Positions 6,575 to 54,702 of a stretch of DNA of 64,000 nt are shown piece after piece (position 1 is the first letter of the stretch; every line of letters starts with the position of its first letter). Under the pieces are notes generated by a model. It saw nothing but the letters and a program-made list of their open reading frames with translations, ran no database searches and was not told the origin of the DNA. This DNA comes from an uncultured Candidatus Saccharibacteria bacterium (GTDB lineage: Bacteria; Patescibacteriota; CAZHWT01). A program made the position numbers and the translations under genes. The stretch spans positions 49,232-113,231 of the forward strand of contig CAZQWH010000002.1 in NCBI GenBank assembly GCA_964597145.1, written 5' to 3'.

Positions 6575-6577
6575 AAA

Positions 6578-14198: not shown

Positions 14199-14555
14199 CT
14201 GATACCCAAGTCACCAAACTTGCCGTATATAAGGGGTTTAACCATTTCAGAAGGTGTTCAAATAAAATTGCATCTAGGGTAACTATAAATACGCATGTAG
14301 CTTACTTACCTCAGACAAGTAAGCTACGTCTTAAATCAAGCAACCTAGGTTCAAAGCTATTTAACCTTTGAGGTTAAAGTCGTAAAGGTCTATATTATTA
14401 GAGGCTTAATACGAGGTACGAAAATTTACTCAAACTCTACCCAACCGTCATTGCCAGGTCGCCACGCTCCCCACCATGACGACAAATTCAGACTATGAGA
14501 AAGGAAAAGGGAGCATCAATTGATGCTCCCGCGACGCCAGTGGCGCCCAATAAAT

Positions 14556-15245
14556 CTACTTGGCCTGTTGCTGAATCAGCCAACGAGTCAGATCACCATC
14601 CGTCGGATTAACAAGCGTATCCTTCGCCCCGAAGAACTCGAGGGCAAGCTCGCTGTCTAACCCAATAGCATAAACGACTACCTCAAGGCGTAGTTTATAC
14701 TCGTAGAGGTAGTTGCTCACCTCCACTCGGGGCGGTTGGGAGGCAAAGCTCTGTCCGCTCCAGAGAGCCTGCTGAATTCCCTCGGAAGGCTGCTCCGAAA
14801 GAGAGGCCTCAAAAGCAGCAGCTTCCTGCTTAACCCATTCAATCGTCTGATTGAGAATTACCCGTGTATGTTCCCACACGGCATCGCTTGGTTTGGGGTA
14901 GACTAACCTCGACAAATGTCTCAGCATAATCCGTTCGGCTGTATCGAGGGCAACCGAAGTCGCCTCAACACTTGCTCCTCGCAGCCTTGCTAATTCCACC
15001 ACAGTCCGCGTTGACATATCTTGAGTGCCTGGCAAGTCAAGCTTGTGTTTGGCTACAAACAACTCATACCTCAGTTCTGATAGTTCAGCTTCTGCCACCT
15101 CCTCAACTTGATCCACCGTTGGAATGACAGCACCGAGTGTACTGCTAAAAAGCCGTCCAACTAAGCCCACCATATCGGCTTCTGCATGGAAGTCATAGGT
15201 GTCTGGCAAAAGCTTAGCCATCTCAGGTGACTTTGACCGCCGCAT
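14556..15245 (-). CDS. Hypothetical protein on a GC-rich segment
   Basis: 229-aa ORF; local GC is clearly higher than its surroundings. Confidence 0.4.
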   Translation of the reverse strand: MRRSKSPEMAKLLPDTYDFHAEADMVGLVGRLFSSTLGAVIPTVDQVEEVAEAELSELRYELFVAKHKLDLPGTQDMSTRTVVELARLRGASVEATSVALDTAERIMLRHLSRLVYPKPSDAVWEHTRVILNQTIEWVKQEAAAFEASLSEQPSEGIQQALWSGQSFASQPPRVEVSNYLYEYKLRLEVVVYAIGLDSELALEFFGAKDTLVNPTDGDLTRWLIQQQAK

Positions 15246-18628: not shown

Positions 18629-18800
18629 TCCCATTACACCAAATATACTTATTGAAAATAACGATCATAGATGGGCTGAATATTGATCAAGTAAGCCAGG
18701 TTCAAGCACGTTTAACCCCGATCAAATCAGGGCTAGCCTCCGAGGTTGCATCTTCAGTCTAGTTTGCCCATGGTGACTGCGGATAGGTATAATTAATTGG

Positions 18801-19241: not shown

Positions 19242-19699
19242 TCCAAAGCTTGGTTACAAACCAGCCAGGCATCGTTACTTACTTCCCAGCAAGAAACCTA
19301 ACTAAATCCCTACAATCCCTAAAATTCCAGCCAAAACCGGAGGAGCCGGGATAGGTAAGTTAACTTTGGCAAAAACATAACCGAGCACAGTTCCAGCCGC
19401 CAAAGCTAGCCCAGCCTCTTTCCAGTCTGTAGTCATAACTGTTTGGAAGACATTTTGAAAATTCATCATGAATCCTTTCTTATTATCCTACTAATACTAC
19501 CCAGTATACCAGAGGTATTTTGCAGATCTGCCTGTTTGATTTACAATGGTTTTATCGAGAGCATACTCCGACTCCTCCGTTCGTCATTCCCACCCTGTGC
19601 TAAGTGAAGTCGAGTAGGTCGGGAATCAAAGCCTATACTGACTATATATATCGGATTTCCACCTCCGTGGGAATGACAGAAATCTAGAGCTAGTTATTT

Positions 19700-27310: not shown

Positions 27311-27702
27311 GGCATATTGCGATATCTTTAGTAAAGGCCTGCATTGCATCTTGCGTCATGCTAAGCGTTAGCAGCCTGTCAGCCTCTGGCTGCAAGAATC
27401 TTTTAAAGCCTCCATTGTTAGTAGCAATTAACGATCCAGCCACCCATTCAACCTCCGAGGTTAAACGTGCTTGAACCTAGGTTGCTTGATGTAATATTTA
27501 TGTACCTTGTCATTCCCGGCTTGACCGGGAATCCGAGCGCCGAGTGACTCCACACTTCTTAAATTGCCGCTGACACAGAGATAACCTTAAGTTTTAACTT
27601 TTGCGCTGTAGTTTCGACCCTTAACCTTTGCCCTTTGAATTTTGACGTCCCTTCACGTTTGCTTGGTTACAGGTACAGAGTTAACGGTATACAATAGACA
27701 AC

Positions 27703-29316: not shown

Positions 29317-29841
29317 TTATTTCGTCTTTTTGTCCGCTTCAACTTTTTTGCTTTTGGTGCGTCTAATTGGAGTCAGCTGAGAAGCAATCCCAATCGCTGC
29401 ACTCACTAAAACTGTATTTTTAATAATATACTGGCCCTCCAAGGTGGGCACCAACCAGCCTTGCCAAACCATATCAGGAGTTAGGGCTAAGGGCAAGGCA
29501 GTACTAACCATATGCGGCAAAAGTAGAGCAATGGCGGCGCGCTCAAACCCTTTAATAATAAAGGTTAAGCCAATCACCACCTCGTACACGCCAAAGGCCA
29601 TATAAAATTCATCAAAGGGGATGAAGGGTATTGTTTGATCGTGCAAGGCTTCAACTAGCGGCGTGGCGGGGGAGAGACCAAAGACTTTAAGTGCCCCAAA
29701 CCAGGCAAAAACAATAAATAAGGCCACACGGGCGCTAGGCAGAAACGCCTTACGCATGGCACCGATAATATGAACGTCGAGGGATGATAGGCCACTTTTA
29801 CTCACTGGTTCAGTATAATCTATCAACCAAGCTAACGCCAT
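29317..29841 (-). CDS. Small integral membrane protein (DUF417/YkgB- or DoxX-like)
   Basis: 174 aa, 4 TM helices, Lys-rich C-terminus; a heptamer array lies immediately 5' of its start. Confidence 0.5.
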   Translation of the reverse strand: MALAWLIDYTEPVSKSGLSSLDVHIIGAMRKAFLPSARVALFIVFAWFGALKVFGLSPATPLVEALHDQTIPFIPFDEFYMAFGVYEVVIGLTFIIKGFERAAIALLLPHMVSTALPLALTPDMVWQGWLVPTLEGQYIIKNTVLVSAAIGIASQLTPIRRTKSKKVEADKKTK

Positions 29842-29843: not shown

Positions 29844-29882
29844 GAGGTCAGAGGTCAGAGGTCAGAGGTCAGAGGTCAGAGA
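29844..29882. repeat. Heptanucleotide tandem array (AGGTCAG, 5 units)
   Basis: 'gaggtcagaggtcagaggtcagaggtcagaggtcagag' read directly; begins 3 nt upstream of the 29841 start codon. Confidence 0.9.
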
Positions 29883-30001
29883 AGGCAGTTTAGCACATGG
29901 TTGGCAGTGCAAATTAAACGGGGAATCCAATGTATTTCTTAATGTCATACTTGTTAACCTCCGCCGCCTGGTGGCTCATTTTATAGATTCAACCTATTAC
30001 T

Positions 30002-30070: not shown

Positions 30071-30243
30071 ACAAGGTTTCATACTTATTCGTCATTCCCA
30101 ACTCCTGCTCGCAACGCTTCGCTTACGATAGCCGATGGGCGATCGGGAATCTAAAACGTTATCAGCTCATTCAACACTTTTAATTCCCGCCGGAGGTTAT
30201 GCTGCACTAGATTCAGTGCGGGAATGACAGGAAGGGTGTCGGG

Positions 30244-30345
<102 letters not shown>

Positions 30346-30703
30346 GAAGGTTAGTATACGTCATTACGAAGCCATTCGGCTCTAAAGACTCAAGCCTCAT
30401 CGTCCATTCGACGGTCTCAAGCTTATGGTTGAAGGATCAGGCTCGAATGAGGAGTGGTAACGGACTGTGGCGACCTGCCTGTTTGGACGGCGAAGGCATG
30501 GGGAGTGGGCCAAGTTTCGGATTTCGAACTTTATCAATAAACCTACCCCTTCACCTCTTGTGCCAACGAATCATCGTAGGCAGACTCAGCATGATAGGAT
30601 GCCGGCAGAAAGCTGCAGTTTGACAACAAGTGTATTGATTGTCTGCCCAATATGTGTTACTATAGGTTATGTAGATTATTCGATTTCACCAAAGGTGGGG
30701 AAA

Positions 30704-34596: not shown

Positions 34597-35216
34597 GTGT
34601 ATTTATTGTAACGTATATTGTTTCCCGACGCACAGGAGGAATTCGCTGACGCGAGACTTTGACTAAGAGAATTGGAGATGGGATGTAGGATGAAGGATTC
34701 GGGATATAAGTAGGTTAAAGTGCAAAGTGTAAATGGCAAAGCCAAAGGTTAAAAGCTAAGACATTAAAGATCTTCGGTTTATCACGATAACCGATCTACG
34801 ATCAACTCATAATCCAAAACCGATAGACGATGTGCAAGATACAAAATACCTCAGCCTAGCAACCAACGTCTTGGATAAAGTCCTATAGTATAGTATAATC
34901 TTGGGAAAGGCAGCTGATCTTTTCGCTTAAAGTCAGGAGAGGATTATGACTCCAGAAGCGCTCGAAGAGGCAAGTCATCCTCAGCCAACAGTTCGATCTT
35001 CAGGGTCATCTCGATCCAGGCGACTCTGTCATCTTCCAAGGCGAAAATGACGGTGTTCAGCTCTTTATCGAGACCAACCAGGCTGGCGACGTTGTCTACT
35101 TCTTTGCTCCCGAAGACTACGAGCCATAAGGAGCTTGCCCCGGATGCACAGCAGTGCATTCCGTGGTTTAACTTTTTATCTGTTCATACACACAGGCTTG
35201 AACAAGGAGAGTGAAC

Positions 35217-35938: not shown

Positions 35939-35983
35939 TTGACGACTCTGTCATAATAGAATTATATCCCCCTAGGGGGGATA
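35939..35983 (+). promoter_or_regulatory. Candidate sigma70-type promoter (TTGACG-17-TTATAT) overlapped by a G/C-tract palindrome ATATCCCCCTAGGGGGGATA, putative CsoR/RcnR-type operator
   Basis: Palindrome at 35964..35983 overlaps the -10 element. Type-2 G-tract operators are typical of CsoR/RcnR repressors, and the csoR gene follows. Confidence 0.5.
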
Positions 35984-36094
35984 AGTATGAAGTTAAAAAT
36001 CAAAAATCAAAGGTCAAAACCACAGTTCAAAGCTTAAAATTTTACCTCCAAAGCGCAGTTTTGCCTTTTGACCTTGCGACAAAGGAGGCTATTT

Positions 36095-38258: not shown

Positions 38259-38349
38259 GCCATACCCCTTTCTTTGTTTGCCTGCCTCCAGTTAGGCGCA
38301 TTATAGCACGGTTAATTGAGTCTTAAGTCCGAAAAGAAGGTGTGTACTT

Positions 38350-38417
38350 CATTGCCAGGGAGTGGTAGCAACCGTGGCAACCTGCCTGTTTCGCATCTAA
38401 AATTCGCTCGCTATGAC
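38350..38417. repeat. MITE-like element with GTCATTGC(G/C)AGG-type inverted termini (family copy)
   Basis: 'TTCATTGCCAGGGAGTGGTAGCAACCGTGGCAACCTGCC...CGCTATGACGAGGGAGG'; the internal 'GGAGTGGTA.C..C..TGGCAACCTGCC' is shared with the copy at 52815. Confidence 0.6.
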
Positions 38418-38581
38418 GAGGGAGGGGTGGGGTTGGAGATCGGGTTTTAGGTTTCTAGCTCTAAGCGTCAGTACGTCCTCGTCATTCCCGCGCAGGCGGG
38501 AATCTGAGACTGTGGTGGTGGATGTAGGGCTTAGATTTAATTGGAGAAGATCGCCACGGCGTAGCCTCGCGATGACGGGCT

Positions 38582-38623
38582 GTAGACCGTAGACCGTAGA
38601 CCGTAGACCGTAGACCGTAGAGG
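38582..38623. repeat. Heptanucleotide tandem array (GTAGACC, 6 units) inside a composite repeat element
   Basis: Read directly; flanked by the conserved 'GATCGCCACGGCGTAGCCTCGCGATGACGGG' (38551..38580) and 'GAGGAGATTCTATCTCTTCGCT' (38621..38642). Confidence 0.9.
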
Positions 38624-38816
38624 AGATTCTATCTCTTCGCTGCGCTCCGCTCCAGAATGACGGGAGGGTGTCGAAGATCGGAGGTCGGAGATCTAATATC
38701 GTATTTCATTCATCCAGCAGTCCAATCTCCTAACTCCTGCCTCCTGCAGTACATACAAAAAGACCCCGGAGATTATCCGGGGTCTTTTTGTTAGGCGTTA
38801 GCTAATTAATGGTAAT

Positions 38817-39566
38817 TTAAGAGATAAACTTTTTACCAATTAATGCTGCGCTAATACCACCCAAGGCTACCATCATGGCCGCACCAGGACCAGTTGAAGG
38901 AAGTTGTGTTACTTCACCTAGTACATCTGGAGTAGGAGTTGGCGTTGGGTTCTGGCTACCACCAGTAGGCTGCTGAACCTGATGCACCTTAGTAGGTGTA
39001 GGGGTTGGCTTATGGTGGTTGTGCTGCTCCGGTGTAGGAGTTGGGGTATTATCCTCAACAGCTGGAGTCGGAGTTGGAGTTGGGGTATTATCCTCAGGAG
39101 TTGGGGTAGGAGTTATTCGAGGTGTTGGGGTAGCTGTAGGAGTTGGAGTAGGCTGACTTGTCACAATAGTTAAGCGACAGTCATTCTTGTAAATACCATT
39201 AAAAGTAGTTAAGGTGCCTTGGCCCAAAACCTTTGAGTCACAAACCCAACCTTTATCATTAGCAAAGTCCTTCAAACTATAGTCGCATGAACTTTCCTTA
39301 ATAATACCGTTAAACGAAGTTGGTGATTTTTGACCCAAAATCTTAATTGGGCAAACGCTTTTACCATTAACAGAGCAATCGCGCTTATAAATACCATTCA
39401 TTTTATCGGTGGTGGCATTATATTGGCCCAGAAACTTAATTGAACAATGGATTACTTTAGTACTAACAGTGCTGCTCGCCGAGACGGTGGCTGGTTGAGC
39501 AAACATGCCCATCCCCATCAAGCTTACAGCTGCGACTAAACTAACAGTAGATTTAATTGAATTCAT
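38817..39566 (-). CDS. LPXTG-anchored cell-surface protein with three Cys-containing ~35-aa modules and a Pro/Thr-rich stalk
   Basis: Signal peptide; thrice-repeated 'K.LGQ....FNGIYK.DC' modules; 'PTPTPT' linker; C-terminal 'LPSTG' plus hydrophobic helix plus 'KKFIS' sorting signal. Confidence 0.85.
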   Translation of the reverse strand: MNSIKSTVSLVAAVSLMGMGMFAQPATVSASSTVSTKVIHCSIKFLGQYNATTDKMNGIYKRDCSVNGKSVCPIKILGQKSPTSFNGIIKESSCDYSLKDFANDKGWVCDSKVLGQGTLTTFNGIYKNDCRLTIVTSQPTPTPTATPTPRITPTPTPEDNTPTPTPTPAVEDNTPTPTPEQHNHHKPTPTPTKVHQVQQPTGGSQNPTPTPTPDVLGEVTQLPSTGPGAAMMVALGGISAALIGKKFIS

Positions 39567-39817
39567 ATTAGTGTCCCTCCTTGGGGTTACTAGTTATTGA
39601 TATATTTATACCATATACTATAGGATATGTCAAGATGTACTATTATATGCCTATCTTCTGGGATTTGCAAATAAGAAATTATCTGAGTTAATTCTTTAGT
39701 CTTAAATCGGAGTAAATTATAGGGTTTATAAACTAATTTTAATAGAACCCAGATGGTATAATGGGCGCCGATAGAATTTGGAGATAGAAGCTAGGAGCTA
39801 GGAGCTCGAATGTAAAT

Positions 39818-39892
39818 GTCATTGCAAGGGAGTGTATTGACCGCGGCAATCTATATAAACCAATCAAGATTGCTTCGCTAGGGCGCAATGAC
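39818..39892. repeat. MITE-like element, GTCATTGCAAGGG ... GCGCAATGAC terminal inverted repeats
   Basis: ~75 nt; internal 'GACCGCGGCAATCT'; preceded by GCTAGGA x2. Confidence 0.7.
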
Positions 39893-39924: not shown

Positions 39925-40971
39925 ATGAAAATTTACGTTGGCATGAGCGGCGGGGTAGATAGCTCCCTGACCGCGGCATTATTAAAAGAACAAGGGCATG
40001 ACGTCACTGGGGTTTACCTCAAGAACTGGGCCAAAGAATGGGATATCTTTGACTGTCCCTGGGCAGATGACTTGCACGATGCCTCACGGGTAGCCGAGCA
40101 ACTTGGGATAGAGTTGAAAGTGTTTGATGTCCAGCAGCAGTATCGCCATTATGTGGTGGACTATATGTTGGCCGAGTACCAGGCTGGGCGCACGCCTAAC
40201 CCCGATATCATGTGCAACCAGGAGATGAAGTTTGGGGTGTTTATGCGATTGGCTGAGGCTGATGGGGCAGAGGCTATCGCGACTGGACACTACGCACGAA
40301 TTAAAGAAGGGAACTTGATGGCTGGCGTTGATAAAAACAAGGATCAGAGTTATTTCCTTTACCGTATCAGGCCAGAATCATTAACCAAAGCCTATATGCC
40401 CATTGGCCAATACACCAAACCTCATGTTCGCGAAATGGCTAAAGAGCGCGGATTAGTGACCGCCAGCAAAAAAGATTCGCAAGGCATATGCTTCATCGGC
40501 AAGGTTAAGTTAAAGGACTTTCTGAAAATGTATGTCAAAAGTGAACCGGGTGAGGTGATTGATCAGCACGGTCAAGTGATAGGGGAACATGATGGCGCAA
40601 TTTATTACACCATCGGCCAGCGGTCAGGCTTGGGTATCGGTGGTGGCCAGCCCTACTTTATTACTGGTAAAGACATGAATAAAAATGAGATCTATGTCAC
40701 CACTGATCCGCAAGATGATGAACTGTGGAAAGACACTGTATCAATCAATCAGCTCCATTGGCTGAACGAGGCTCCAAAGTCAAATAAGATCTACCACATC
40801 CGAGCTCGCTATCGCGCACCATTAGTTGAAGCTAGAATTACCCAGCTTAACAACACGTCCATGTCTTTCAAGTTACAACAGCCAGTCCGCGCCATCGCCC
40901 CTGGTCAGTCATTAGTAATGTATGACAAAGATAGGGTGGTGGGTGGAGGCATCATCACCGCAGAGCGGTGA
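39925..40971 (+). CDS. mnmA: tRNA-specific 2-thiouridylase
   Basis: PP-loop 'YVGMSGGVDSSLTAALL', conserved Cys positions, length 348 aa. Confidence 0.9.
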   Translation: MKIYVGMSGGVDSSLTAALLKEQGHDVTGVYLKNWAKEWDIFDCPWADDLHDASRVAEQLGIELKVFDVQQQYRHYVVDYMLAEYQAGRTPNPDIMCNQEMKFGVFMRLAEADGAEAIATGHYARIKEGNLMAGVDKNKDQSYFLYRIRPESLTKAYMPIGQYTKPHVREMAKERGLVTASKKDSQGICFIGKVKLKDFLKMYVKSEPGEVIDQHGQVIGEHDGAIYYTIGQRSGLGIGGGQPYFITGKDMNKNEIYVTTDPQDDELWKDTVSINQLHWLNEAPKSNKIYHIRARYRAPLVEARITQLNNTSMSFKLQQPVRAIAPGQSLVMYDKDRVVGGGIITAER

Positions 40972-41039
40972 TGAGTAGTAAGTATTGAGTCCGGAGTAGG
41001 GAATAAATGAAGTCTTTCTCAGAATAATGCGGTTCCACC

Positions 41040-41122
41040 GTCATTGCGAGGGAGTAAAACGACCACGGCAATCTTCTCAGCACAGCCAAGATTGCTTCGT
41101 CATTTACATTCCTCGCAATGAC
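41040..41122. repeat. MITE-like element, GTCATTGCGAGG ... CCTCGCAATGAC perfect 12-nt terminal inverted repeats
   Basis: 83 nt, read directly; internal 'ACGACCACGGCAATCT' box shared with other copies. Confidence 0.8.
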
Positions 41123-41263
41123 GAAGTACTCAAAACCCATTCGCACACCACCCATCACCCTTCGTCGATATATCTGAGATATAAACGGCTTGTTACGTAA
41201 CATGTTACGTAACAAAATCAATTGGTAATGATAACTTACGATTAACTAAATAACCCATAGTAT

Positions 41264-41845: not shown

Positions 41846-42344
41846 CTTTGTCATTCTGAGTGTCAACGCCTACCAGCCTCTAGCTAGAAGAATCCTCCAA
41901 TCTAGATGGCCATAAGGATCCTTCGCTTTCAGTTCAGGATGACAAATACCTGTAATTCCTAGAAAGTAGTTAATCAAGATCTTTATTAACTGTTCATCGC
42001 TCAGATTCCGGCTCGGAGCCTCAATGGAAACATTCCAAACTCAGGCGCATTTATGACGCGCTTCACTCCCTATAAACCACAGTCTATCTAGATACTTTCG
42101 TCTCAATAAACCCGAGAATTGCACGATACTTAACCATAATTTCATCTATTCCACCCATCAACCTATCCAAGTTAATATATCTCAGACAGGAACCTCCCAT
42201 AAATTTGACCTCTCACATATAAAAGCCTAAAAAACTACACACAATCAGTACCAAGTAACAGTATGTAACATGCAGCCTCCATCACGCCTTAACCTAAAGC
42301 CTGAGCCAGAAATTCCCAACTCTTCGTCACACCAACAAGCAACC

Positions 42345-42412
42345 TAGGTTCAAAGCTGTTTAACCCCCGAGGTTAAATGTGTTTGAACCTAGGTTGCTTG
42401 TTAAACTTTAAG
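42345..42412. repeat. Palindromic dispersed element ACAAGCAACCTAGGTTCAAAGC-TTTAACCCCCGAGGTTAAA-TTTGAACCTAGGTTGCTTGTT (complete copy)
   Basis: Half or partial copies at 14335..14380, 27450..27491, 54516..54572 and 18696..18720. Confidence 0.8.
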
Positions 42413-42755: not shown

Positions 42756-43808
42756 CTAAAATTCTCCCACCAACCCAATTTCCATTTCCAATTGATAGCC
42801 GGTTTCGGCTTTGACTTTCTCCTGAGCCAGTATGGCTAAGGCCATAACATCAGCCGCAGTAGCCTGACCCGTATTGACTAAAAAGTTAGCATGTTTTTCG
42901 GATATTTTTGCTCCGCCAACCTGCTTGCCTTTTAGTCCCACCTGATCGATTAATCGACCAGCGCCCACCCCTTCAATTTTTTTAAAGACCGAACCACAAG
43001 AGGGGAAATCCTCTAGTTGGGGTTGACGTTCGCGACGCCATTTAAGATTTTCTTGGGCTTGATGGACTATTTCCGCCTTTGGTTTAGTTATCAGATTAAA
43101 GGTGGCCTCTAACACAATAACCTCCTGGTGGTGGAGGATAGAATCGTCATAGCCAAACTGAAAAAAGTCGGTACCCACTACTCGAGTTGAATTATCTGGC
43201 ATCAGAACTTTGGCACTATCTAAAACCTCCTCAATAAACACTGTCCGACTACGATCTGGCGACAAAAAATGCAGATTCTGCCATAAGGCGCCACCAACGC
43301 TACTTGGAATGCCGGCAAAATGCTCGAGGCCGGAGAGTTGGCGCTCGGCTGTATATTTAATTAAATCGGCAATGGTTGCCCCGGACTCGGCAGTGAGCAA
43401 GCAGGTCGGAGATCGCATGTCGGAGGTCGATTCACTGTCATCCAGGAGTGCGTCAGCACGATAGGATCTATCCTGGACATCATGACCATCCTGAGAGATT
43501 CTATCGCCTCCGGCTCCAGAAAGACGAGATAAAGGGTTAATCTCAACATTATCTGCCTGATTATAAATTACTAACCCACGAAATCCTTTGTCGCCGATGA
43601 GGATATTGGCGCCGGTGCCGAGGAGGAAGTAGGGGATGGACTGCTGTCGCGCTTGAGTGATGGCAGTTACGAGCTGGTCTTGGGAGTGAACCTCCACAAA
43701 ATAGTCAGCTGGGCCGCCGATCTGGTAGGTGGTGTAAGGGGCAAGGGATACATCTCGTTGTATATCTAACCCAGGTATATTGAGATCCATATGAGTGTAG
43801 TGTACCAT
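42756..43808 (-). CDS. murB: UDP-N-acetylenolpyruvoylglucosamine reductase
   Basis: FAD-binding 'YTTYQIGGPADYFVEV...LLGTGANIL', 'GLEHFAGIPSSVGGALWQN', C-terminal MurB domain. Carries an extra ~40-aa acidic insert encoded by repeat-like DNA at ~43400..43520. Confidence 0.9.
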   Translation of the reverse strand: MVHYTHMDLNIPGLDIQRDVSLAPYTTYQIGGPADYFVEVHSQDQLVTAITQARQQSIPYFLLGTGANILIGDKGFRGLVIYNQADNVEINPLSRLSGAGGDRISQDGHDVQDRSYRADALLDDSESTSDMRSPTCLLTAESGATIADLIKYTAERQLSGLEHFAGIPSSVGGALWQNLHFLSPDRSRTVFIEEVLDSAKVLMPDNSTRVVGTDFFQFGYDDSILHHQEVIVLEATFNLITKPKAEIVHQAQENLKWRRERQPQLEDFPSCGSVFKKIEGVGAGRLIDQVGLKGKQVGGAKISEKHANFLVNTGQATAADVMALAILAQEKVKAETGYQLEMEIGLVGEF

Positions 43809-44580: not shown

Positions 44581-46215
44581 TCAGGTCGGGAATGACAGGG
44601 GAGCGGTGTTTGTTAATTGAGGCGAATATGGTTTGATATTGGATCGATTGCTAGGACTACTTATATATCGTTTTAAGATTTTATATTGATCCAGATCGAA
44701 CTGAGGGATTATCGATTGGTGCTCAATTAACTGGTCATGTTGGATAATATGGCCAACCAAACACCAGTTATCAATAATATACCCATCACTTTGGCCTTGA
44801 TGGTCGCTTTCGGTAATAATAATCGGTGTCGCATATGGCCATTGTTTAATTCTGGTTGTGGCAAAAGCTTGGTTGAATCGCATTAAATACTCCAAGCTGG
44901 ATTCTTTTCCCACACACGCTCCATAGCAAACTTTGAGTTGATGAGGGAAACAGGCGCCAGAGGTTTTTTGGAGCCCTAATAATTTGTGACAAAGGTGATG
45001 CTCTTTGGCTAGAGCAACTAATGATTCTTTAGCCTGTCGCTCGGAGCGATAGACGGCCATAACTGCGTCCAGAGGGACGCAGGAGGTCGATGGTGGGAGG
45101 TTGGAAGGCGACTTGGATTTTAATTTGTCGTCATCCCGGAAGAAGTCTTGCGACTGATAGGATCTAGATTCTATCGCCTTTGGCTCTCTTCGATCCTGAG
45201 CCTCAGAGCCGAAGGCCAGAATGACATTTTCTATATTTATTTTTTCTGATTTCTGATTTGTTTCGATTTTAGGATTTAGAATTTCTGATTTGCGCTGCAA
45301 GGAGATTGTTGGATAGCCAGCCTCATCTTTGCCTTTAATCGCCACCATCATCTCGGTTTGGCATCGCAGCAGCCGGTTATGGATCGGCATTAGCTCCTTA
45401 ATTAAGCGTGATTCAGTAAGCAAGGCACCTAGTTCGCCGGTAGTAGATATGGTTTCAATATCCGTAATTTCCCGGGCAATCCGTTGCTCTTTGGGGGAGC
45501 GGTGGTCATCGCTAAAGTGAGATAAAACTCGATCACGGATACTCACACTTTTGCCGACATACAAGGGTGCATTAGTGGCAGAGCGAAAAATATAAACCCC
45601 CGGCGACTCAGGTAAGTCATTCACAATTCTCTGGGGCAGGTGAACCGGCAAAGATGGCTGACGTAGCTGTAATCGAACCTGCTGGTTAATAATTGCTTCG
45701 TCATGTTGTTCAACCATGCATTGCAAGGCTTTCCAAGTCGCTTCAGCATCAGCAAAAGCCCGGTGGCGTTCGAGTATAGGGATAGCAAAGCGTTCAATGA
45801 GGGCGTCTAGTTTATGGCTGCGATAGTGCGGGTAAAGTGCTCGGGACAACTTGACCGTGCAGAGCAGGCGAGGTTTAAACTGGTACCCAGCTCGCCCTAA
45901 TTCCTCTTTGATAAAGGCATAATCAAACCGGGCGTTGTGCGCCACAAAAATACAGCCTTCAAGTAAGTCGTACACATCCTGAGCCACCTCAGTAAAAGTA
46001 GGTGCGCCCGTTATATCATCATTAGAAATCCCAGTTAATTGGGTAATAAAGGCTGGGAGTGAGGTACCAGGATTAATTAATTGGCGCATAGTTTGCACCA
46101 CCTGCCCCTGCTCAATCCGTAAAATACCCACATCAATCACGCCGCCGTTTTTATACGACATCCCAGTAGTTTCGACATCAACAATAGCCAGCGGAGAATG
46201 GAACAGATTGGGCAT
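44581..46215 (-). CDS. DnaQ-like 3'-5' exonuclease (DEDDh) fused to GIY-YIG nuclease domain (Cho/UvrC-homologue-like)
   Basis: Exo motifs 'VDVETTG', 'HNARFD', 'HRAFADA'; GIY-YIG 'GVYIFRS...LYVGKSVSIRDRVLSHF'. A ~75-aa low-complexity insert is encoded by repeat DNA at ~45060..45300. Confidence 0.85.
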   Translation of the reverse strand: MPNLFHSPLAIVDVETTGMSYKNGGVIDVGILRIEQGQVVQTMRQLINPGTSLPAFITQLTGISNDDITGAPTFTEVAQDVYDLLEGCIFVAHNARFDYAFIKEELGRAGYQFKPRLLCTVKLSRALYPHYRSHKLDALIERFAIPILERHRAFADAEATWKALQCMVEQHDEAIINQQVRLQLRQPSLPVHLPQRIVNDLPESPGVYIFRSATNAPLYVGKSVSIRDRVLSHFSDDHRSPKEQRIAREITDIETISTTGELGALLTESRLIKELMPIHNRLLRCQTEMMVAIKGKDEAGYPTISLQRKSEILNPKIETNQKSEKINIENVILAFGSEAQDRREPKAIESRSYQSQDFFRDDDKLKSKSPSNLPPSTSCVPLDAVMAVYRSERQAKESLVALAKEHHLCHKLLGLQKTSGACFPHQLKVCYGACVGKESSLEYLMRFNQAFATTRIKQWPYATPIIITESDHQGQSDGYIIDNWCLVGHIIQHDQLIEHQSIIPQFDLDQYKILKRYISSPSNRSNIKPYSPQLTNTAPLSFPT

Positions 46216-46475: not shown

Positions 46476-47297
46476 CTACTTACCTACACCCAGCACCGTG
46501 GACAAGGCCAAGATCAGACAATCGATCAGCCTGTCAATGATCTCCTGAGGAACACCCGGGTAAGGGTTGTCCACACCAGTGTCGGTGCCGGTGTCGGTGT
46601 CGGTGTCAGTGTCACCTCCGCATTGAAGCGCGAAGTAACTGAAATCCGCCCCGTTGATCACCGAGCCGTGAATGTACACTGGCTCAGTGAATACCTGGTC
46701 CCCAGGCAGCAGATCAAGTTGGCCCGACGTATCCGCCACAGCACTGACCGCAAGTCTTTCGGTCAGCACCTGGGTGTCGGACTCACCATCACGAGCGAAG
46801 AACTCGATCTGATAGGGCCCACCTTCTTCGTAGTTAACGAAGATAGTGTATTCAATCAGCCCACTACAGTTTGCATCCGTGATGACGGAGCAGACCGAAT
46901 GGTCACACTGATTGACCGGGCCACCATCCGATTCTGCATCGGTATCCGGGGCGCCCGTATCGGTATCGACGTCTGTGTCAGCGTCAGCTGAGGTGTCGGC
47001 GTCGAAGTCAGAAGTTGTGTCGGTCGTTGTATCAACGATCGGCACCGACGAATTGTCGATGTCCTCGACTGGGACAATCTGCTGATCCGACGGAGTGTCG
47101 GTGTCGATATCGGTGTCGGTATCGATGTCAGAATTGTCGATGTTTTCGACCAGCTGCTGGCCGGAATTATCGATCGGCACCGACGAGTTGTCGATATCCT
47201 CAACCGGGACGAGCTGCTGCTCCGTCTCGGCACTAGCCATCGCCGGCATGATCGCCATCATGAGCGCTGCAAACAGCGGAACCAGAATCTTCTTCAT
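46476..47297 (-). CDS. Secreted acidic repeat protein (DT/DxD-rich), hypothetical
   Basis: Signal peptide 'MKKILVPLFAALMMAIMPAMASA'; duplicated 'QQLVPVEDIDNSSVPI' segments; (DT)n runs; GC-rich. Confidence 0.5.
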   Translation of the reverse strand: MKKILVPLFAALMMAIMPAMASAETEQQLVPVEDIDNSSVPIDNSGQQLVENIDNSDIDTDTDIDTDTPSDQQIVPVEDIDNSSVPIVDTTTDTTSDFDADTSADADTDVDTDTGAPDTDAESDGGPVNQCDHSVCSVITDANCSGLIEYTIFVNYEEGGPYQIEFFARDGESDTQVLTERLAVSAVADTSGQLDLLPGDQVFTEPVYIHGSVINGADFSYFALQCGGDTDTDTDTGTDTGVDNPYPGVPQEIIDRLIDCLILALSTVLGVGK

Positions 47298-47741: not shown

Positions 47742-48293
47742 TTGACAGCCAAGCATTTGACGTACGATACTAGATGTGTGTATAGATTAAACCTTGACCC
47801 CTTCGGTCCTCCATTTACAAAGCTTCACATTATTGCCTATGGCAGCATTACTTTGGCTTTGGGCTTTGTAATTTTATTGGGCGTGATTCCAAAGTTACGC
47901 CAAGGCCAAGAAGCGTTAACCGCTGTAGCTACCGCAACTCCAGCCAGCTTGCAGCAGGATTACAACAAGCCGTTAGCTACTGTCCAAAATAATCAATTCG
48001 CCAAAGCCTGGAAAGAAGATGGATTTCTTATCTTTGATATAAGACCTGCGGTAGAATTTGAAGTCATACATATTACGGGCTCCCGCAATGCACCAATCGA
48101 GTTTCTAGCCGCATCTTCCTTTGACACCGATACCACCACCGTGATTTATAGTCCCAACCTGCAAGACCTGGAAAAGGCTACCCAAATACTCACAGATAAG
48201 GGAGTAAAGCAGGTAGTTCAATTGCACGGAACCATCGAAGAACTGCGGGCTCAGGGATATGCATTAAAAGCATCTGAAAGTATTACCCAATGA
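47742..48293 (+). CDS. Membrane-anchored rhodanese-like domain protein (catalytic Cys apparently replaced)
   Basis: 'FLIFDIRPAVEFEVIHITGSRNAPI' rhodanese fold; loop 'VIYSPN' has Ser where an active rhodanese has Cys; stop overlaps the start of the next gene. Confidence 0.55.
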   Translation: MTAKHLTYDTRCVYRLNLDPFGPPFTKLHIIAYGSITLALGFVILLGVIPKLRQGQEALTAVATATPASLQQDYNKPLATVQNNQFAKAWKEDGFLIFDIRPAVEFEVIHITGSRNAPIEFLAASSFDTDTTTVIYSPNLQDLEKATQILTDKGVKQVVQLHGTIEELRAQGYALKASESITQ

Positions 48294-51200
48294 ATATACG
48301 ACTAAGAATCCAGCGCTCAGCCACCTTACTAGTTGCCTTACTAGCCGTTGTTGGAATAGTGTTTCCAACTAATAGCTTAGCGGCAGACGCGGATAAGGTC
48401 ATTATTGGTGGGTCTTCATCGTATTCAGCTGGCGATACGGTAAATATTGAAGTCAGAGTACCGTGGCCCGATTCTATTGACGTTAACCCTGTCGAAATTG
48501 TATTAGTGGTTGATGCTTCGGCGTCACTAGATTCGTACATCGCGGCAGCTAAAACTCCACTTAAAAACTTTGTTGATGACCTGGCTAATTTCCCCGGAGC
48601 AGCCAAAGTGTCTGTAGTTACCTTTGGCCATCGGCCATCCTCAAGTTCTGCTCCAAACAGCCCTTTCACCCACACCCAGTTTGCCATGAGACAAATTAAG
48701 ACATCGACGGATAGAACCGATTTAAAAAATGCGATTAATAGTATTGACACCAACAGCCTTGAAGCCTATTCGGATATCCGACAAGGAATTATCTATGGCA
48801 ATAGCAAGTTCTCAACAAGTAGCAACGTAAGTAAGCGCTATTTAGTACTAGTGACAGATGGATTAGATAACTATCCTGCATCGGGCTCGAGTATCTTGGG
48901 TGAAACAAGCTGGAATGGACAGTGCGCCATCACTCCGTCTGGAGCATCTAATATTAGTGGCCTACGGTATGATGAATTTACAATCTTACCTGGCGGAGAC
49001 ACTTCAAAAAAATTAGATTTTAGCTTTAATGACGGCTCAAATAAGCACTATATTTCGCCATGCGGATACGGCCAAGGTGATAGTATTCCAACTGGTTCAC
49101 AATTCATTAACAAAATGACTACCGCTTTTTCCAATACAGATCGGGCTACTAGCCTACAGGATACAATCAACCAGATCTACTACTTAATCACGCCAGCTCA
49201 GGTTGAAGTCACCGATCGATTAAACAGCAATGTATTCGACTCAATCATCACTACTCAAAACCCCAAGAATTGCAGCTCTGGTGACACCTATTCATTTGGC
49301 GACACTCAAAAAACTGGCGCTATCTCATTTAGCTCAACAGCACTTTCGCCAAGCAAAAATGGCACCTGTATTCGAATTAGCGCTCGAGTTAAATCTGGGG
49401 CAAGTACAGGCAGTCAATCAATCAATTCCAGTATTAACTCGGTCAAGTACAAAAACGTGCCTGGCGATATTTTGTCTGAGACAGATATTAAACTTGGCTC
49501 CATAAATATTAGTGGTGGAACCTTCCCCACACCAGACCCTACTTCTACTCCCATAGACAATTCGCCAACGCCAACACCAACACCCAAACCAACACCAATT
49601 TCAACGCCACCACCATCAACCAAAGATCTAGGGTTAAACGCTGGGCCTAATTTTAGCGTCAATGCTGGGGAGCAGCACACCTCAAGCGTCAGTCTGCAGT
49701 ATTATCCAAATTCCTCCGCCTGGTCCACCAGCGACAGAGTGATGCTGAAAATTACGGGCATTGTATCTTCGAGTAGTAGTTGTCCTAGTAGTTACACGGC
49801 CGATGCAGTATCAACCGGATCTAACATAACCGCTGGACTAAATACACTAGGTAATGACACCACCTTCTTATATTTTCCAGACTCATCCCGATCAGTCATT
49901 GTTAAGCCAAACACCAGTGCAAGTCCTGGTAATTACAAAGTCTGTCTTGGTGGCATGCTGGTTGGCCACACCGATATTTATGCCACCGATTCCCTTAACT
50001 TTACGGTTGTTGCTCAAAGCAAGGACCTAGCCTTAACTACAGAGTCGGGAATTAGTATAAGTACAGGAACTAATTACAACACCGCGGTGGGTCTTCAGTA
50101 CCTACCAAGTGCTTCTGCTTGGAACAGCAGTGATCGAGTTAACCACCGAAGTGTTGGCATTGTGCCGGCTGGGGCCACTTGTCCCGATGATGGGGGGCTG
50201 CGCACCACTGGCAGTGGTCCAACCGCTGGCATTAGTTTGAATGGTATTTATAAGACCGTTAATTTTAATACCCCTTCAATCCCTTTTACCATCCAAGTCG
50301 ATAACTCAACCGATCCAGGCAACTATAAAATATGCTTATATGCCATAAGAGTCAGAGAGTCTATCAGTGATCCTTATGTCAAGGCCTATAAAGAACTAAA
50401 CTTTACCGTTACCGCCCCACCTAAAAGCATCGGGTTAACAACCGAGCCTAATATTAAGATAAATGCCGGCGCAACCTACACTACCTCGGCTGGAATCCAA
50501 TATTTACCGAGTGATTCGGCCTGGGATACCAGCGATCGATTGTGGCTTAAAATCACCGGGATTATGCCAGCCAGCAGTAGTTGTCCGGCAGACGCTCGGG
50601 CTGATGATGTAACGTCCGGTACTGGCTCGGCATCAAACATCACTGCTGGGATAGATAATCTAGGAGATGGATTTAAATATTTATATTATGATACCGCGTC
50701 AAAATCAATTAAAATCCAACCAGGTACCAACACCCCAATCGGCGATTATAAAATCTGCCTTGGACTATCACTCAACGGTTCGTCTGATGTAGTAACAGTC
50801 GACGCTATTAATTTTGCCGTTACCCAGCAATCTTGGATACAAATAGGGCGCTCCCTGGGGCAAGCTGTTGGTGAAACCGGAGATGTTCACTCTAATAGTG
50901 GTTTAACTATCAAGGTGCCAATAAATCAATATTTCTTTAAAGATGGCACCGCTGGAGTAGTAACAGCCAAAGCCGCTTTTGACGACCCGGCCCAAGACCG
51001 ATTTACCACAGCAGCTGCCAAACTATGGCGAATACCTAGTTATCCCGATGTTATTACCACCGACAGTTATACTCGACTACGCCAAGCGATCCTAGATAAT
51101 GTGGGGCAAACTGCTATTAATTCAAATTCGGCATCCGACATTAACACAGCCTGCACCAATCACCAAACAGTGGTCATTCATCAAGCTTCATTAGCCCAAG

Positions 51201-51610
51201 GAGAGCTCCTCAACTCCGCCGACCTACCAGCCTGTGCTGGCAAAAATATTATCTTCTTAATCGATGGGGCAGCCACCTTTGATGCCAATGTAATTAACAA
51301 CTCAAACAATATTACTTTTACCTTTATTGCAAGCGGCGATATAACAGTAGACCAGAACGTCGACCAACTAGATGGGGTCTATATATTCGGCCACAACTTT
51401 GATGGCGGTGGGGGAGATACGCAACTGGTAGTTAACGGCTCACTGATTGGTTTGGCTGGAAGCTCACCCAGCTCTAGCACTGGATCATTTAACTTGCACC
51501 GAAGCTTGGCCGACAATACTACACCTGCCCTACTTATCCGCTACCAACCCAAGTATCTATTTCTACTTAAAGATGTGATGGGTACCTCCAACTACACCTG
51601 GAGCGAGTAG
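48290..51610 (+). CDS. Large secreted surface protein: N-terminal vWA domain, three tandem ~125-aa beta-rich repeats, C-terminal ~290-aa domain
   Basis: Signal peptide; vWA MIDAS 'VLVVDASASLD' and 'LVLVTDGLDN'; Pro/Thr linker; thrice-repeated 'L.LTTE..I.I..G..Y.T..G.QYLPS.SAW..SDR...GI...S.CP...G.YK.CLG' units. Confidence 0.75.
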   Translation: MNIRLRIQRSATLLVALLAVVGIVFPTNSLAADADKVIIGGSSSYSAGDTVNIEVRVPWPDSIDVNPVEIVLVVDASASLDSYIAAAKTPLKNFVDDLANFPGAAKVSVVTFGHRPSSSSAPNSPFTHTQFAMRQIKTSTDRTDLKNAINSIDTNSLEAYSDIRQGIIYGNSKFSTSSNVSKRYLVLVTDGLDNYPASGSSILGETSWNGQCAITPSGASNISGLRYDEFTILPGGDTSKKLDFSFNDGSNKHYISPCGYGQGDSIPTGSQFINKMTTAFSNTDRATSLQDTINQIYYLITPAQVEVTDRLNSNVFDSIITTQNPKNCSSGDTYSFGDTQKTGAISFSSTALSPSKNGTCIRISARVKSGASTGSQSINSSINSVKYKNVPGDILSETDIKLGSINISGGTFPTPDPTSTPIDNSPTPTPTPKPTPISTPPPSTKDLGLNAGPNFSVNAGEQHTSSVSLQYYPNSSAWSTSDRVMLKITGIVSSSSSCPSSYTADAVSTGSNITAGLNTLGNDTTFLYFPDSSRSVIVKPNTSASPGNYKVCLGGMLVGHTDIYATDSLNFTVVAQSKDLALTTESGISISTGTNYNTAVGLQYLPSASAWNSSDRVNHRSVGIVPAGATCPDDGGLRTTGSGPTAGISLNGIYKTVNFNTPSIPFTIQVDNSTDPGNYKICLYAIRVRESISDPYVKAYKELNFTVTAPPKSIGLTTEPNIKINAGATYTTSAGIQYLPSDSAWDTSDRLWLKITGIMPASSSCPADARADDVTSGTGSASNITAGIDNLGDGFKYLYYDTASKSIKIQPGTNTPIGDYKICLGLSLNGSSDVVTVDAINFAVTQQSWIQIGRSLGQAVGETGDVHSNSGLTIKVPINQYFFKDGTAGVVTAKAAFDDPAQDRFTTAAAKLWRIPSYPDVITTDSYTRLRQAILDNVGQTAINSNSASDINTACTNHQTVVIHQASLAQGELLNSADLPACAGKNIIFLIDGAATFDANVINNSNNITFTFIASGDITVDQNVDQLDGVYIFGHNFDGGGGDTQLVVNGSLIGLAGSSPSSSTGSFNLHRSLADNTTPALLIRYQPKYLFLLKDVMGTSNYTWSE

Positions 51611-51612
51611 AG

Positions 51613-51662
51613 GACTTTGGACTTTGGACTTTGGACTTTGGACTTTGGACTTTGGACTTTGG
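51613..51662. repeat. Heptanucleotide tandem array (GACTTTG, 7 units) starting 3 nt after the stop codon of the 1106-aa gene
   Basis: Read directly; followed by the conserved 'GGAGGAGATTCTATCTCTTCGCT' and 'GATCACCACGGCGTAGC...GATGACGGGAGGG' flanks. Confidence 0.9.
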
Positions 51663-51969
51663 AGGAGATTCTATCTCTTCGCTATAGATACTGCTGGTAA
51701 TACAGGCAGGTCTGGTTGGATAAAGTAGATACCGATTAAATTGGGGTAGATCACCACGGCGTAGCTTCCGCCAGGGGCGGACAGGCGTGATGACGGGAGG
51801 GATTCGAAGATCGTATATCGGGTTTTAGGTTTGGTGTTTGTGATTTCGAGCTTGTGATTTGTTTCTCATTTCGAATTTCTCATTTCGGCTTTTGCCTATA
51901 ATTCCACCTCCATTTCTTGTCTTGCGCATTTCGTATTCTGCCTTCTAGTTTCCCATCCCACCCGGCACA

Positions 51970-52514: not shown

Positions 52515-52769
52515 CTTTCTGTGGTTCACCTCCTTTATTGGCGAACTTCCTTGGCGCAAAGGAGGAGTGCAGAAAGAAGAAATCTCGTCTTACGCTAGCT
52601 ACCAGCCTTATCCTCGGTATGTCAGAAGCCACCTCGCGTATATCTATTTGGCCATTAGTCCAAATCTACAACTAAGTCGGCTTCTGTTGCGAGTATATAA
52701 GTCTGGAATAAGCTGGTCAAGTAGGAAAGCGACAACAGTGAGCGTTGTAGGGTTACAAGACGAGAGACT

Positions 52770-52805
52770 GGATGCGGGATGCGGGATAAGGGATAAGGGA
52801 TAAGG
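52770..52805. repeat. Heptanucleotide tandem array (GGATGCG x2, GGATAAG x3)
   Basis: Read directly; followed by 'GGTTAGTATACGTCATTGCGAAGG', as at 30346. Confidence 0.85.
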
Positions 52806-52814
52806 TTAGTATAC

Positions 52815-52928
52815 GTCATTGCGAAGGAGTGGTAACGACTATGGCAACCTGCCCGCCATGCTTACGCAGCCGTTGCAGGCGGGTCTTGGTGGGATCTAGC
52901 AGATCGCCACGGCGTAGCCTCGCGATGA
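52815..52928. repeat. MITE-like element, GTCATTGCGAAGG ... CCTCGCGATGAC termini
   Basis: 114 nt; internal 'GGAGTGGTAACGACTATGGCAACCTGCC' and 'GATCGCCACGGCGTAGCCTCGCGATGACGG' boxes shared with 38350 and 38551. Confidence 0.75.
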
Positions 52929-53338
52929 CGGGGAAGAGGATTTGTATATTGTATATCGTATATCGTATTTCGGGGATTGGGTTGGTGTGTTGTGATTCCT
53001 GTCCGCAAGGCTGGTTATGGCTTGCCTGGTGGACGGGTTTTGTTTCTGATTTGTTTCGTATTTCGTATTTCGTATTTTGTATTTCTGAATAAGTTTTACC
53101 TTTTATCTTTTCCGTTCAGATCACAGCTGTCCTTTAGGTAAGATTTTTGTCTTATCGAACAACTTCCAACTAAGGCTCAATCTAGCTCATTCCCCTAGCT
53201 ATCTGAGTTAATTCTGTGACTAAGAAATATTTTACCCAATTTCCGGTCTAAATTTTCAAAAATTAACCAACAGCGGAGTACATATTTTACCCTGGTAATT
53301 TGACAGGCAACCAAGCGATTGGATACCATTAACAAGAT

Positions 53339-54229: not shown

Positions 54230-54702
54230 AAAATATGGATTGAATCCGTAGTGATTCAGTCTATGTTTTTTGTGCTTGTGGGTTTGGAGTTTCACTATGC
54301 AAAGCAGGTTCACATTCTAAAAGAGTACTATGCCAACACCGATTGTAATAGTGAGAACTAGAAATCCCAACATAGTCGGGGTCCCTCTCCCCAGTACCGC
54401 ATCTATCAGTCTCAAGCTAGGAGAGTAATAACAACGCAGCAGTCTTATCTAAAGATGTACATTTGAATGTACATCTTTAGATATTTATCTGAGATGAAAT
54501 AAACAGCCATCAAATCAGACAACCTAGGTTCAAGCACGTTTAACCCCGGGGGTTAAACGGGTCGTCATTCGCACTCATTAATAATTCACAGGATAAAAAT
54601 AGCCATCACTCGGCATCATTTGTATTGGCTTATTTGACTTATACCACCCTATCCGTTATATAACCCACATCGGCGTGAGAGTGCATAAAAAGGAGAGACT
54701 TC

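Follow-up and report, generated by a model that had tools for sequence, protein, structure and literature searches.

The 64-kb stretch of DNA analysed here (the window) carries mosaics of short repeats, of which the one at 38342-38791 and its sister loci elsewhere in the window are described. These mosaics probably form a repeat island in which two known kinds of repeat, both selfish or mutational DNA, are physically coupled: small elements resembling repetitive extragenic palindromes (REPs) and miniature inverted-repeat transposable elements (MITEs), and microsatellites with a heptanucleotide unit. A preliminary description had recognised a mosaic of heptanucleotide arrays and MITE-like boxes and was right in kind, but it took the boxes for parts of a single element with an array at its centre. 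What is conserved is instead the termini of several (C/T)GTC-tagged elements, which are also found without arrays (27509, 44573, 57149, 61056 and 19583-19677).

A mechanical listing of tagged elements (GTCAT followed by an inverted repeat) shows every box to be the end of an element in which a stem starting with AT immediately follows the (C/T)GTC tag. Judged by sequence, each box is a terminus or short spacer of a small non-autonomous element tagged (C/T)GTC-AT. CGTC or TGTC stands before the stem at 38481, 27509, 44596, 57172, 61079, 30228, 19583, 38576, 38661, 51794, 52929, 30359 and 52815. Box 1 is present at 38549 and 52902 (an exact 31-mer), with a diverged copy at 51745, and is a C-type end, opposite to B. 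Box 3 (30349 and 52804) consists of a spacer (GGTTAGTATAC) and the tag belonging to a B-type end with the sequence GTCATTGCRAGGGAGT...GGCAATC. Box 2 (38620 and 51662, with diverged intragenic copies at 43496 and 45161) and box 4 are the two ends of one D-type unit. The 12-nt core of box 4 (ATGACGGGAGGG) shows no excess in the window when taken alone (8 matches at up to 2 mismatches versus 3.4 expected, with 8 in the largest shuffle), but its exact copies at 38657 and 51790 are real and extend to a 32-nt family with 84% identity. A compensatory stem change, from ATCGC/GCGAT to ATCAC/GTGAT, is seen in the box 1 variant at 51750-51794.

Five of the elements, at 38481, 27509, 44573, 57149 and 61056, are simple hairpins (stem of 8 bp, loop of 4-5 nt), and their 3' tails are CTG, CCG, CTG, CTA and CTA; the ends formed by box 1, by boxes 2 + 4 and by B-type sequences have 5-bp stems and loops of 14-32 nt. 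Doublets with terminal inverted repeats (GTCATTGCGAGG...CCTCGCGATGAC) measure 70-130 nt and fold into one long hairpin. A B + C doublet with its tags outward lies at 52815-52929, and similar doublets lie at 41040-41122 and 39818-39892; pairing is through the inverted termini GTCATTGCGAGG/CCTCGCRATGAC (fold z = -3.5, -8.9 and -2.3, respectively). All three are small, carry terminal inverted repeats and have no coding capacity, as is typical of MITEs, and no matching direct repeats indicative of a target-site duplication are present at their flanks. Elements also nest: the hairpins at 30091-30150 and 30183-30228 hold loop insertions of 45 nt and 27 nt, and the B-type end at 30359 is split by 79 nt.

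Tandem Repeats Finder bears out the heptanucleotide arrays at all of the loci originally named. Perfect arrays are present at 29844-29881 (GAGGTCA x5.4), 30244-30345 (x14.6), 38582-38621 (GTAGACC x5.7; score 80, 100% matches), 51612-51663 (GGACTTT x7.4) and 52770-52805, with weaker ones at 52944, 53054, 45243, 51862 and 39780. Lag 7 is the top periodicity of the window, with 211 positions versus 0-39 for other lags from 3 to 12 in a lag-autocorrelation scan (35-nt self-match of at least 0.7 counted), and the scan delimits 20 heptamer-phased tracts. The perfect arrays are clean stretches of longer, degenerate heptamer-phased arms that begin at an element boundary, as in ATGAC-GGGAGGG-TGTCGAA-GATCGGA-GGTCGGA, and portions of these arms are kept between loci. 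Some tracts (34664-34849, 35974-36039 and 60043) have no element nearby.

Several particulars of the preliminary description need adjustment. The boxes are exact as quoted there, none is expected in shuffled sequence, and formal alignment within the window supports them (blastn E = 2e-13 to 2e-5), but each is found in only two or three loci and not in at least five. Nor does the repeat unit differ at every locus: GGGATGC is common to 30246 and 52770, which are 85% identical over 66 nt comprising array and box 3 (30306-30371 versus 52761-52826, E = 2e-13), such that array and box were copied together. At 29844 the supposed conserved flank amounts to a weak spacer resemblance (AGAAGG...). This array does lie 3 nt from the ATG of the open reading frame (ORF) 29317-29841 (minus strand), a start codon that is putative, and the stop codon of ORF 48290-51610 does adjoin an array, with a gap of 1 nt to its start at 51612 and not of 3 nt to 51613.

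The coupling of arrays to elements is directional. When tags are defined by sequence motif only, 5 of 11 arrays are no more than 30 nt away from a tag on its 5' side (null mean 0.13; none of 2000 permutations reaches 5), and just one lies on the other side (null 0.23). With a curated list of tags, 6 of 17 arrays are within 20 nt of a tag versus 0.39 under a null in which placement was limited to the 21.4 kb of non-coding DNA. An association criterion that requires stems of at least 6 bp misses most element ends. The tracts also have a common polarity, with G exceeding C on the plus strand in 18 of 20 (P = 4e-4) in a window that is overall slightly C-rich, and all copies of the B, C and D modules (mostly training sequences of the profiles) are on the plus strand. 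Polarity of arrays and tracts follows the chromosome strand and not the orientation of adjacent genes. The uniform orientation, together with G/T-rich arms on one strand, suggests a strand-specific, replication-linked process.

Composites are also present within two genes, without loss of the reading frame. In murB (42756-43808, minus strand), a composite at 43395-43535 (plus strand) contains G-rich heptamers, GTCATCC...GGATC and a box-2-like D element (D profile E = 1e-11); query residues 83-136 (54 residues) align with 12 residues in PDB homologues such as 3tx1, leaving about 42 extra. In the gene for a DEDD-exonuclease/GIY-YIG protein (44581-46215, minus strand), the interdomain linker contains a composite at about 45073-45279 (plus strand), in which a pair of tagged elements, their tags facing outward, lies between a G-rich arm and a T-rich heptamer arm and which adds about 68 residues relative to the closest homologues (P0159 and P0160; closest homologues are of 476-487 residues). 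The corresponding sites are empty at the DNA level in L140 and L141, and L142, from a related species in the same series of samples, carries an independent insert in the same linker at L142:1140-1320, with the structure (CTGAAGG)x5-CGCA-CGTCATTGCGAG...GGCAATC...(AACCTAA)x5, the part after CGCA also being given as CGTCATTGCGAGAAGCAACGCGACGCGGCAATC. The composites of about 140-210 nt keep long reading frames open. An AlphaFold model assigns the insert-encoded exonuclease residues 314-378 a predicted local distance difference test score (pLDDT) below 50, between confidently folded domains, and the inserts are predicted to encode disordered linkers that both proteins presumably tolerate. An extra segment is present in the exonuclease linker of P0166 too. 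This linker looks like a hotspot that tolerates inserts.

One of the element types is widely distributed. The B-type end pattern is present in at least 120 metagenome contigs with GC contents of 0.32-0.64, commonly with an inverted partner nearby. The segment 38479-38517 is 90% identical, across 39 nt, to repeats that two Neisseria gonorrhoeae records each carry at 40 or more places; these records carry no annotation at the matching repeats, which we take to be dRS3. For box 1, 28 consecutive bases (ATCGCCACGGCGTAGCCTCGCGATGACG) are also found in a Comamonadaceae intergenic region (L004). A box 1 21-mer compared with 185,579 species genomes, a collection without this genome, gave two matches, that in L004 (a metagenome-assembled genome) and one in L003, the latter falling within an ftsH-like ORF and due to chance. 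At L004:6039-6121, half of box 1 has been turned into a 23-nt tandem repeat (CGTCATCGCGAGGCCGTAACCTT x3.6), which comes directly after a stop codon and precedes a gene that appears zwf-like in translation. The head-flank 24-mer (ATGACGGGAGGGNNTCGAAGATCG) is lineage-specific, with no matches in the metagenomes. Among plasmids, a blastn search with 38340-38700 matched only the dRS3-like hairpin and no cyanobacterial plasmid, and a search of literature text with the element sequence returned only unrelated primers.

Among the tandem repeats of the 120 metagenome loci, those of period 7 form the largest class, with 54 arrays, and 42 of period 14, in 759 kb. Heptamer arrays number 12 in the 13.5 kb of an unrelated contig among these (L116, GC 0.40), several of them as inverted pairs that make long imperfect palindromes, and the contig also has a C + B doublet with a CTTGCTA array about 20 nt on; the segments concerned are 3540-3660, 5600-5740, 6290-6410 and 6520-6670. 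Going by sequence, part of this L116 material appears to lie inside an uninterrupted membrane-protein-like reading frame.

The host, an uncultured bacterium, is probably a relative of the Patescibacteria and not a cyanobacterium. Even its purF product has no relative above 85% identity; the nearest named ones, at 58-62% identity, are Woese-, Davies- and Levybacteria and Saccharimonadales (including Microgenomates-type), and the named homologues of the exonuclease are from Saccharibacteria/Patescibacteria. The cyanobacterial palindrome HIP1 (GCGATCGC) does not occur in the 64 kb. HIP1 absence and these homologues rule out a cyanobacterial host, and the analogy with cyanobacterial short tandemly repeated repetitive (STRR) sequences that had been proposed also falls with them, and with the lack of any canonical STRR unit in tandem.

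A likely scenario for the mosaics is that the small tagged elements move in trans via a transposase and nest in one another, and that heptamer microsatellites start at the outer, tag-proximal junction of an element. The arrays would then grow and change unit by replication slippage and hence differ between loci, though an array can be copied with its element. Composites insert between genes and, in frame, inside genes, and most likely have no dedicated regulatory role.

Several observations weigh against this scenario or limit its reach. No transposase was found among 46 ORFs of the window (Pfam, with 10 also searched by NCBIfam), and no Y1 transposase; with none known for CGTC repeats either, the argument for mobility comes from the filled and empty sites only. 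Box 1 alone (z = -0.5) and boxes 2 + 4 alone (z = +0.8) have no stable fold, which rules them out as independent hairpins, and the nhmmer matches of the B, C and D profiles are mostly to training sequences. Tract boundaries in the polarity test were set partly by hand, and the genome was sampled as one 64-kb window, for which the counts and polarity hold. In the 120 metagenome loci the association of arrays with tags is not significant (3 of 71, null 1.33, P = 0.14) and lag 7 is not enriched in the flanks, and a general association across bacteria is rejected; the tight coupling is a property of this lineage, or could in part reflect both features crowding the same spacers. The host assignment draws on two proteins. 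Finally, the work of Elhai and colleagues from 2008 on small dispersed repeats (SDRs) of Nostoc may describe related contexts of elements and heptamers.

The preliminary description had seen phase-variation potential in these loci, for which the analysis turned up no evidence. That one composite MITE-like family surrounds the arrays, and that changes of copy number tune the spacing of untranslated regions to give phase variation of the neighbours, now seems unlikely. Arrays do touch gene boundaries (29844 with a putative start 3 nt away, and 51612 after a stop), one pair of loci had its array and box copied together, and simple sequence repeats as long as these perfect arrays of 5-15 units are expected to undergo slippage. 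However, there is no box common to all loci, elements exist without arrays, and composites are also present inside coding sequence. In the closest available relative (L012, whose proteins are about 57-89% identical for the genes in common), the region upstream of the ORF 29317-29841 orthologue lacks both array and element. The 29844 array adjoins a putative ATG, those at 38582 and 51612 are in spacers or after stops, and the tracts within ORFs are degenerate. A terminator-like palindrome (38755-38791) and the presumed promoter of the next gene appear to flank the 38582 array. The flanking 401-amino-acid protein has no homologue closer than 57% identity, and there is therefore no orthologous spacer with which to compare this one.

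Just as unlikely in our estimation is that the elements make the arrays, through a transposition or nicking reaction that is coupled to replication, is specific to one strand and repeatedly duplicates the 7 nt next to the tagged end, such that the arrays record activity. The genomes of Patescibacteria are usually described as streamlined. If the elements did make the arrays, this would give a mechanistic origin to the long-unexplained excess of 7-nt tandem repeats in some bacteria (cyanobacterial STRR, Xanthomonas and others), and the streamlined Patescibacteria genomes would contain a composite mobile element that manufactures disordered linkers. A simple origin of the arrays as target-site duplications is ruled out by the finding of different units to the left and right of a single element.

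A related explanation, that the arrays are transposition footprints in which 7-bp staggered insertion and excision, or nick-and-slip by a single-strand transposase, piles up local 7-mers, is quite unlikely. It would explain why arrays begin at tag-side element boundaries, why unit length is constant and unit sequence locus-specific, why orientation and strand polarity are uniform, and why independent inserts in the same exonuclease linker each have arrays. Yet the units differ between the sides of an element (GGGATAA versus GTATATC around 52815-52929, and GTAGACC versus TCGGAGG around 38620-38668), the tracts at 34664-34849, 35974-36039 and 60043 have no nearby element, and in many bacteria no other long simple repeat is as common as the heptamer, irrespective of such elements.

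Very unlikely is that the arrays are functional binding or structural sites, such as G-quadruplexes of (GGGNNNN)n or sites for S1- or cold-shock-type proteins, with an effect on transcription or mRNA. A G3N4 pattern, like that of the GGGNATC repeats (PMC4692102), is seen in (GGGATGC)n and (GGGATAA)n at 30286-30345 and 52770-52805, and strand polarity is uniform; but most units (GAGGTCA, GTAGACC, GGACTTT, GTATATC and TTTCGTA) cannot form three-tetrad quadruplexes, the arrays are not conserved in the relative L012, and polarity follows the chromosome strand rather than adjacent genes. An Rfam scan of the window found two tRNAs only, with no known RNA at the arrays.

The mosaics are the break points of this organism's short-read assemblies. 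All short-read (Logan) contigs stop inside arrays or boxes, and contigs from up to seven samples have exact flanks with breaks at 38573/38577 (where contigs L001 and L002 end inside box 1), at 29873/29859 (where five contigs end inside the 29844 array) and at 30426 (where seven independent assemblies all start). Every 31-mer at 30426 is unique in the window, implying further copies elsewhere or strain polymorphism. An assembly artefact, with arrays and box junctions arising from mis-assembled repeats, is the most improbable explanation of all: such repeats do break short-read assemblies and the deposited copy numbers of the arrays are unverified, but the assemblies match the flanks exactly up to or into the arrays and boxes, and the intragenic composites keep long frames open.

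The coupling of elements and heptamer microsatellites that we favour is displayed at 38342-38791. A decayed inverted-repeat element at 38342-38417 (plus strand) has a box-3-like spacer (AGAAGGTGTGTAC), a B-type end (TTCATTGCCAGGGAGTGGTAGCAACCGTGGCAACC) and a right end (CGCTCGCTATGAC); it matches the B-left profile (nhmmer E = 3e-15, with this copy in the training set) and is 82% identical to 52809-52853 by blastn. Adjoining its tag is an unstranded heptamer-phased arm at 38418-38470 that passes from G-rich to T-rich (GAGGGAGGGGTGGGGTTGGAGATCGGGTTTTAGGTTT) and can be aligned to the arm that follows the 51794 head. A CGTC-1-type REP hairpin follows at 38478-38506 (plus strand), with the structure CGTC ATTCCCGC gcag GCGGGAAT ctg (38481; DNA fold -8.9 kcal/mol, z = -4.5). 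Box 1, a C-type terminus, is at 38545-38579 (minus strand), with its GTCAT tag on the minus strand ending at 38576, and 5 nt from this tag is the perfect (GTAGACC)x5.7 array at 38582-38621 (plus strand). The D-type element at 38620-38668 (minus strand; tag at 38661) has as its ends box 2 (GAGGAGATTCTATCTCTTCGCT) and box 4 (CCAGAATGAC+GGGAGGG), and the D-type profile also matches at 43495, 45161 and 51661. A degenerate heptamer-phased tract (TCGAAGA TCGGAGG TCGGAGA TCTAATA TCGTATT TCATTCA) at 38663-38719 (plus strand) is a lag-7 segment homologous to 51790-51821. The unstranded terminator-like palindrome at 38755-38791, an inverted repeat of 92% over 37 nt with A/T runs, is downstream of gene 38817-39566 (minus strand) and marks the edge of the mosaic; it was not flagged by a consensus scan. 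A 39-nt tandem repeat (x2.2) is present at 39030-39114 inside ORF 38817-39566, which borders this spacer and has no Pfam match.

The sister loci vary in their components. At 29844-29900 (plus strand) the (GAGGTCA)x5.4 array identified by Tandem Repeats Finder is joined by an AGAAGG-type spacer remnant. Two CGTC hairpins with loop insertions lie within 30091-30228 (30091-30150 on the plus strand, 30183-30228 on the minus strand), followed at 30244-30345 (plus strand) by an array that shifts from GATACGA to GGGATAC to GGGATGC (x14.6) between two element tags, and at 30349-30484 (plus strand) by box 3 and a B-type end with the 79-nt nested insertion at 30372-30450. The locus at 51612-51903 (plus strand) contains (GGACTTT)x7.4, a box 2 D-type tail, the C-type variant with the ATCAC/GTGAT stem (tag 51794 on the minus strand) and a G-rich to T-rich heptamer tract. 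The most complete composite, at 52770-53095 (plus strand), consists of a (GGATGCG/GGGATAA) array, box 3, the B + C doublet 52815-52929, a (GTATATC) array and a T-rich (TTTCGTA) tract; its doublet folds as one hairpin over 52804-52935 (-31.1 kcal/mol, z = -3.5). At 39780-39892 (plus strand), a (GGAGCTA) array is followed after 12 nt by the B-type doublet 39818-39892 (z = -2.3), and at 41040-41122 (plus strand) the inverted-repeat doublet GTCATTGCGAGG...CCTCGCAATGAC (41036-41126, -26.3 kcal/mol, z = -8.9) is preceded by a purine-rich heptamer tract at 40963-41005.

Among the various other repeats in the window, we note a motif (TTATCTGAGTTAAT) on the plus strand at 12395, 30016, 39679, 51985 and 53199 (and also 10426 and 41171), with 7 matches on both strands at up to 2 mismatches versus 0.6 expected, and 5 at up to 1 mismatch, all on the plus strand. 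It is often followed by paired palindromes, either TGTTACGTAACA x2 (12417 and 41191) or ACGTATATACGT x2 with a T-run (30038 and 52005), and could be a promoter, operator or terminator module. A further dispersed family (CAAGCAACCTAGGTTCAAAGC...TTTAACCCCCGAGGTTAAA) at 14337-14378, 18686-18720, 27447-27495, 42334-42402 and 54509-54562 is partly palindromic, is found on both strands and is unrelated to the tagged elements. ORF 46476-47297 (minus strand), with no Pfam match, contains the hexamer GTGTCG and repeats spaced by 135 nt (46579-46613, 47095-47129 and 47031-47224), and looks like a repetitive protein and not part of the heptamer system. Positions 1-15000 have a GC content of 0.38-0.42 versus about 0.46 elsewhere and contain defence or DNA-modification-type genes, including those for a SAD/SRA+HNH nuclease (3259-4119, minus strand), an nSTAND3-like NTPase (1247-2425), an APH-type kinase (9307-10158), a HopA1-like protein (11179-12291, minus strand) and a protein with a 5-hmdU DNA kinase domain (13254-14198); this part of the window is possibly an acquired island.

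The tagged elements resemble the CGTC-tagged superfamily of REPs, of which Neisseria dRS3 is a CGTC-1 member (Di Nocera et al. 2013, PMC3733652). No dedicated transposase is known for the CGTC repeats, which are listed in five phyla, Patescibacteria and Cyanobacteria not among them; the Neisseria CGTC-1 elements cluster in mosaics, and RPE-6 and RPE-4 have been equated with CGTC-1 and CGTC-4 (PMC3733652). Likenesses include the unpaired 5' (C/T)GTC tag (the superfamily has TGTC and CCTC variants), the 8-bp stems starting with A-T/T-A and 4-5-nt loops of the five simple hairpins (8-9 bp in the superfamily), the presence of inverted pairs and of some intragenic units, the lack of an associated transposase in the window, and the direct match of a hairpin to N. 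gonorrhoeae repeats. In contrast, the B, C and D ends have 5-bp local stems with long loops and pair mainly as terminal inverted repeats, the tails are CTG, CCG or CTA rather than CCA, and heptamer arms are not described for the superfamily.

Mosaic clusters of intergenic repeats are also formed by the Neisseria intergenic mosaic elements (NIMEs), which are bounded by dRS3, and by the bacterial interspersed mosaic elements (BIMEs) of Escherichia coli. As in these, the spacers of the window are filled by short modules in variable combinations with palindromic bounds, each module being present in some loci only; unlike these, the filler is largely heptanucleotide microsatellite of one strand polarity, and mosaics are also intragenic. 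Rickettsia palindromic elements (RPEs) were reportedly described by Ogata and colleagues in 2000 as selfish DNA inserted in frame in protein genes, essential ones included. The palindromic inserts of the window are likewise in frame in conserved proteins (murB and the exonuclease) and are missing from the closest homologues of the exonuclease, but they are composites of elements and heptamer arms of about 140-210 nt, and belong to a free-standing, non-rickettsial lineage.

The units of STRR sequences are said, from work by Mazel in 1990, to be CCCCAGT, TTGGTCA and CAACAGT; neither these nor TAACTGA and GGGAATC occur in the window in two or more tandem copies in any register. Among long simple repeats, those with heptamer units are given as the most frequent in many bacteria (Mrazek 2007, as summarised in PMC4679880 and PMC4692102), and GGGNATC repeats have been studied in Xanthomonas and Nostoc (Rehm 2015, PMC4692102). 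The window shares with STRR sequences and other long heptanucleotide repeats (also those of Xanthomonas and Beggiatoaceae) the tandem 7-nt units, mostly intergenic and with many units per genome, the dominance of period 7 far above others, and some GGGNNNN-type units. It differs from STRR in that its host is not a cyanobacterium, the canonical units are absent in tandem, and the arrays are anchored to element termini with one polarity.

Of the Nostoc SDRs that Elhai and colleagues are said to have described, SDR5 reportedly inserts into HIP1, a mode of insertion that cannot apply in a window from which HIP1 is absent. The nesting of elements at 30091-30150, 30183-30228 and 30372-30450 does recall SDRs as these are described. 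In papers that cite this work they are very small hairpin-like repeats (PMC4390886, PMC5861425), reported only in Nostocaceae (PMC5861425). The doublets also resemble REPINs (REP doublets forming hairpins), in which a pair of inverted REP-like units makes up a larger hairpin; its mobilisation is presumed to occur in trans, by a REP-associated tyrosine transposase, or RAYT (PMC3116915), and we infer that the orientation bias is compatible with single-strand transposition as in REPINs. Unlike REPINs, the elements have a CGTC and not a GTAG tag, and the window contains no RAYT or Y1 transposase.

None of the top-ranked papers of a literature search treats REPs or MITEs jointly with Patescibacteria. 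Should the coupling prove mechanistic, it would offer a testable way into the long-standing question of why certain bacteria favour 7-nt units in their long simple repeats, and would show how selfish DNA makes new peptide linkers. Both building blocks of the mosaics are of kinds already known; what is unusual relative to the systems above is their directional coupling, their single polarity, the presence of intragenic copies and the likely host group.

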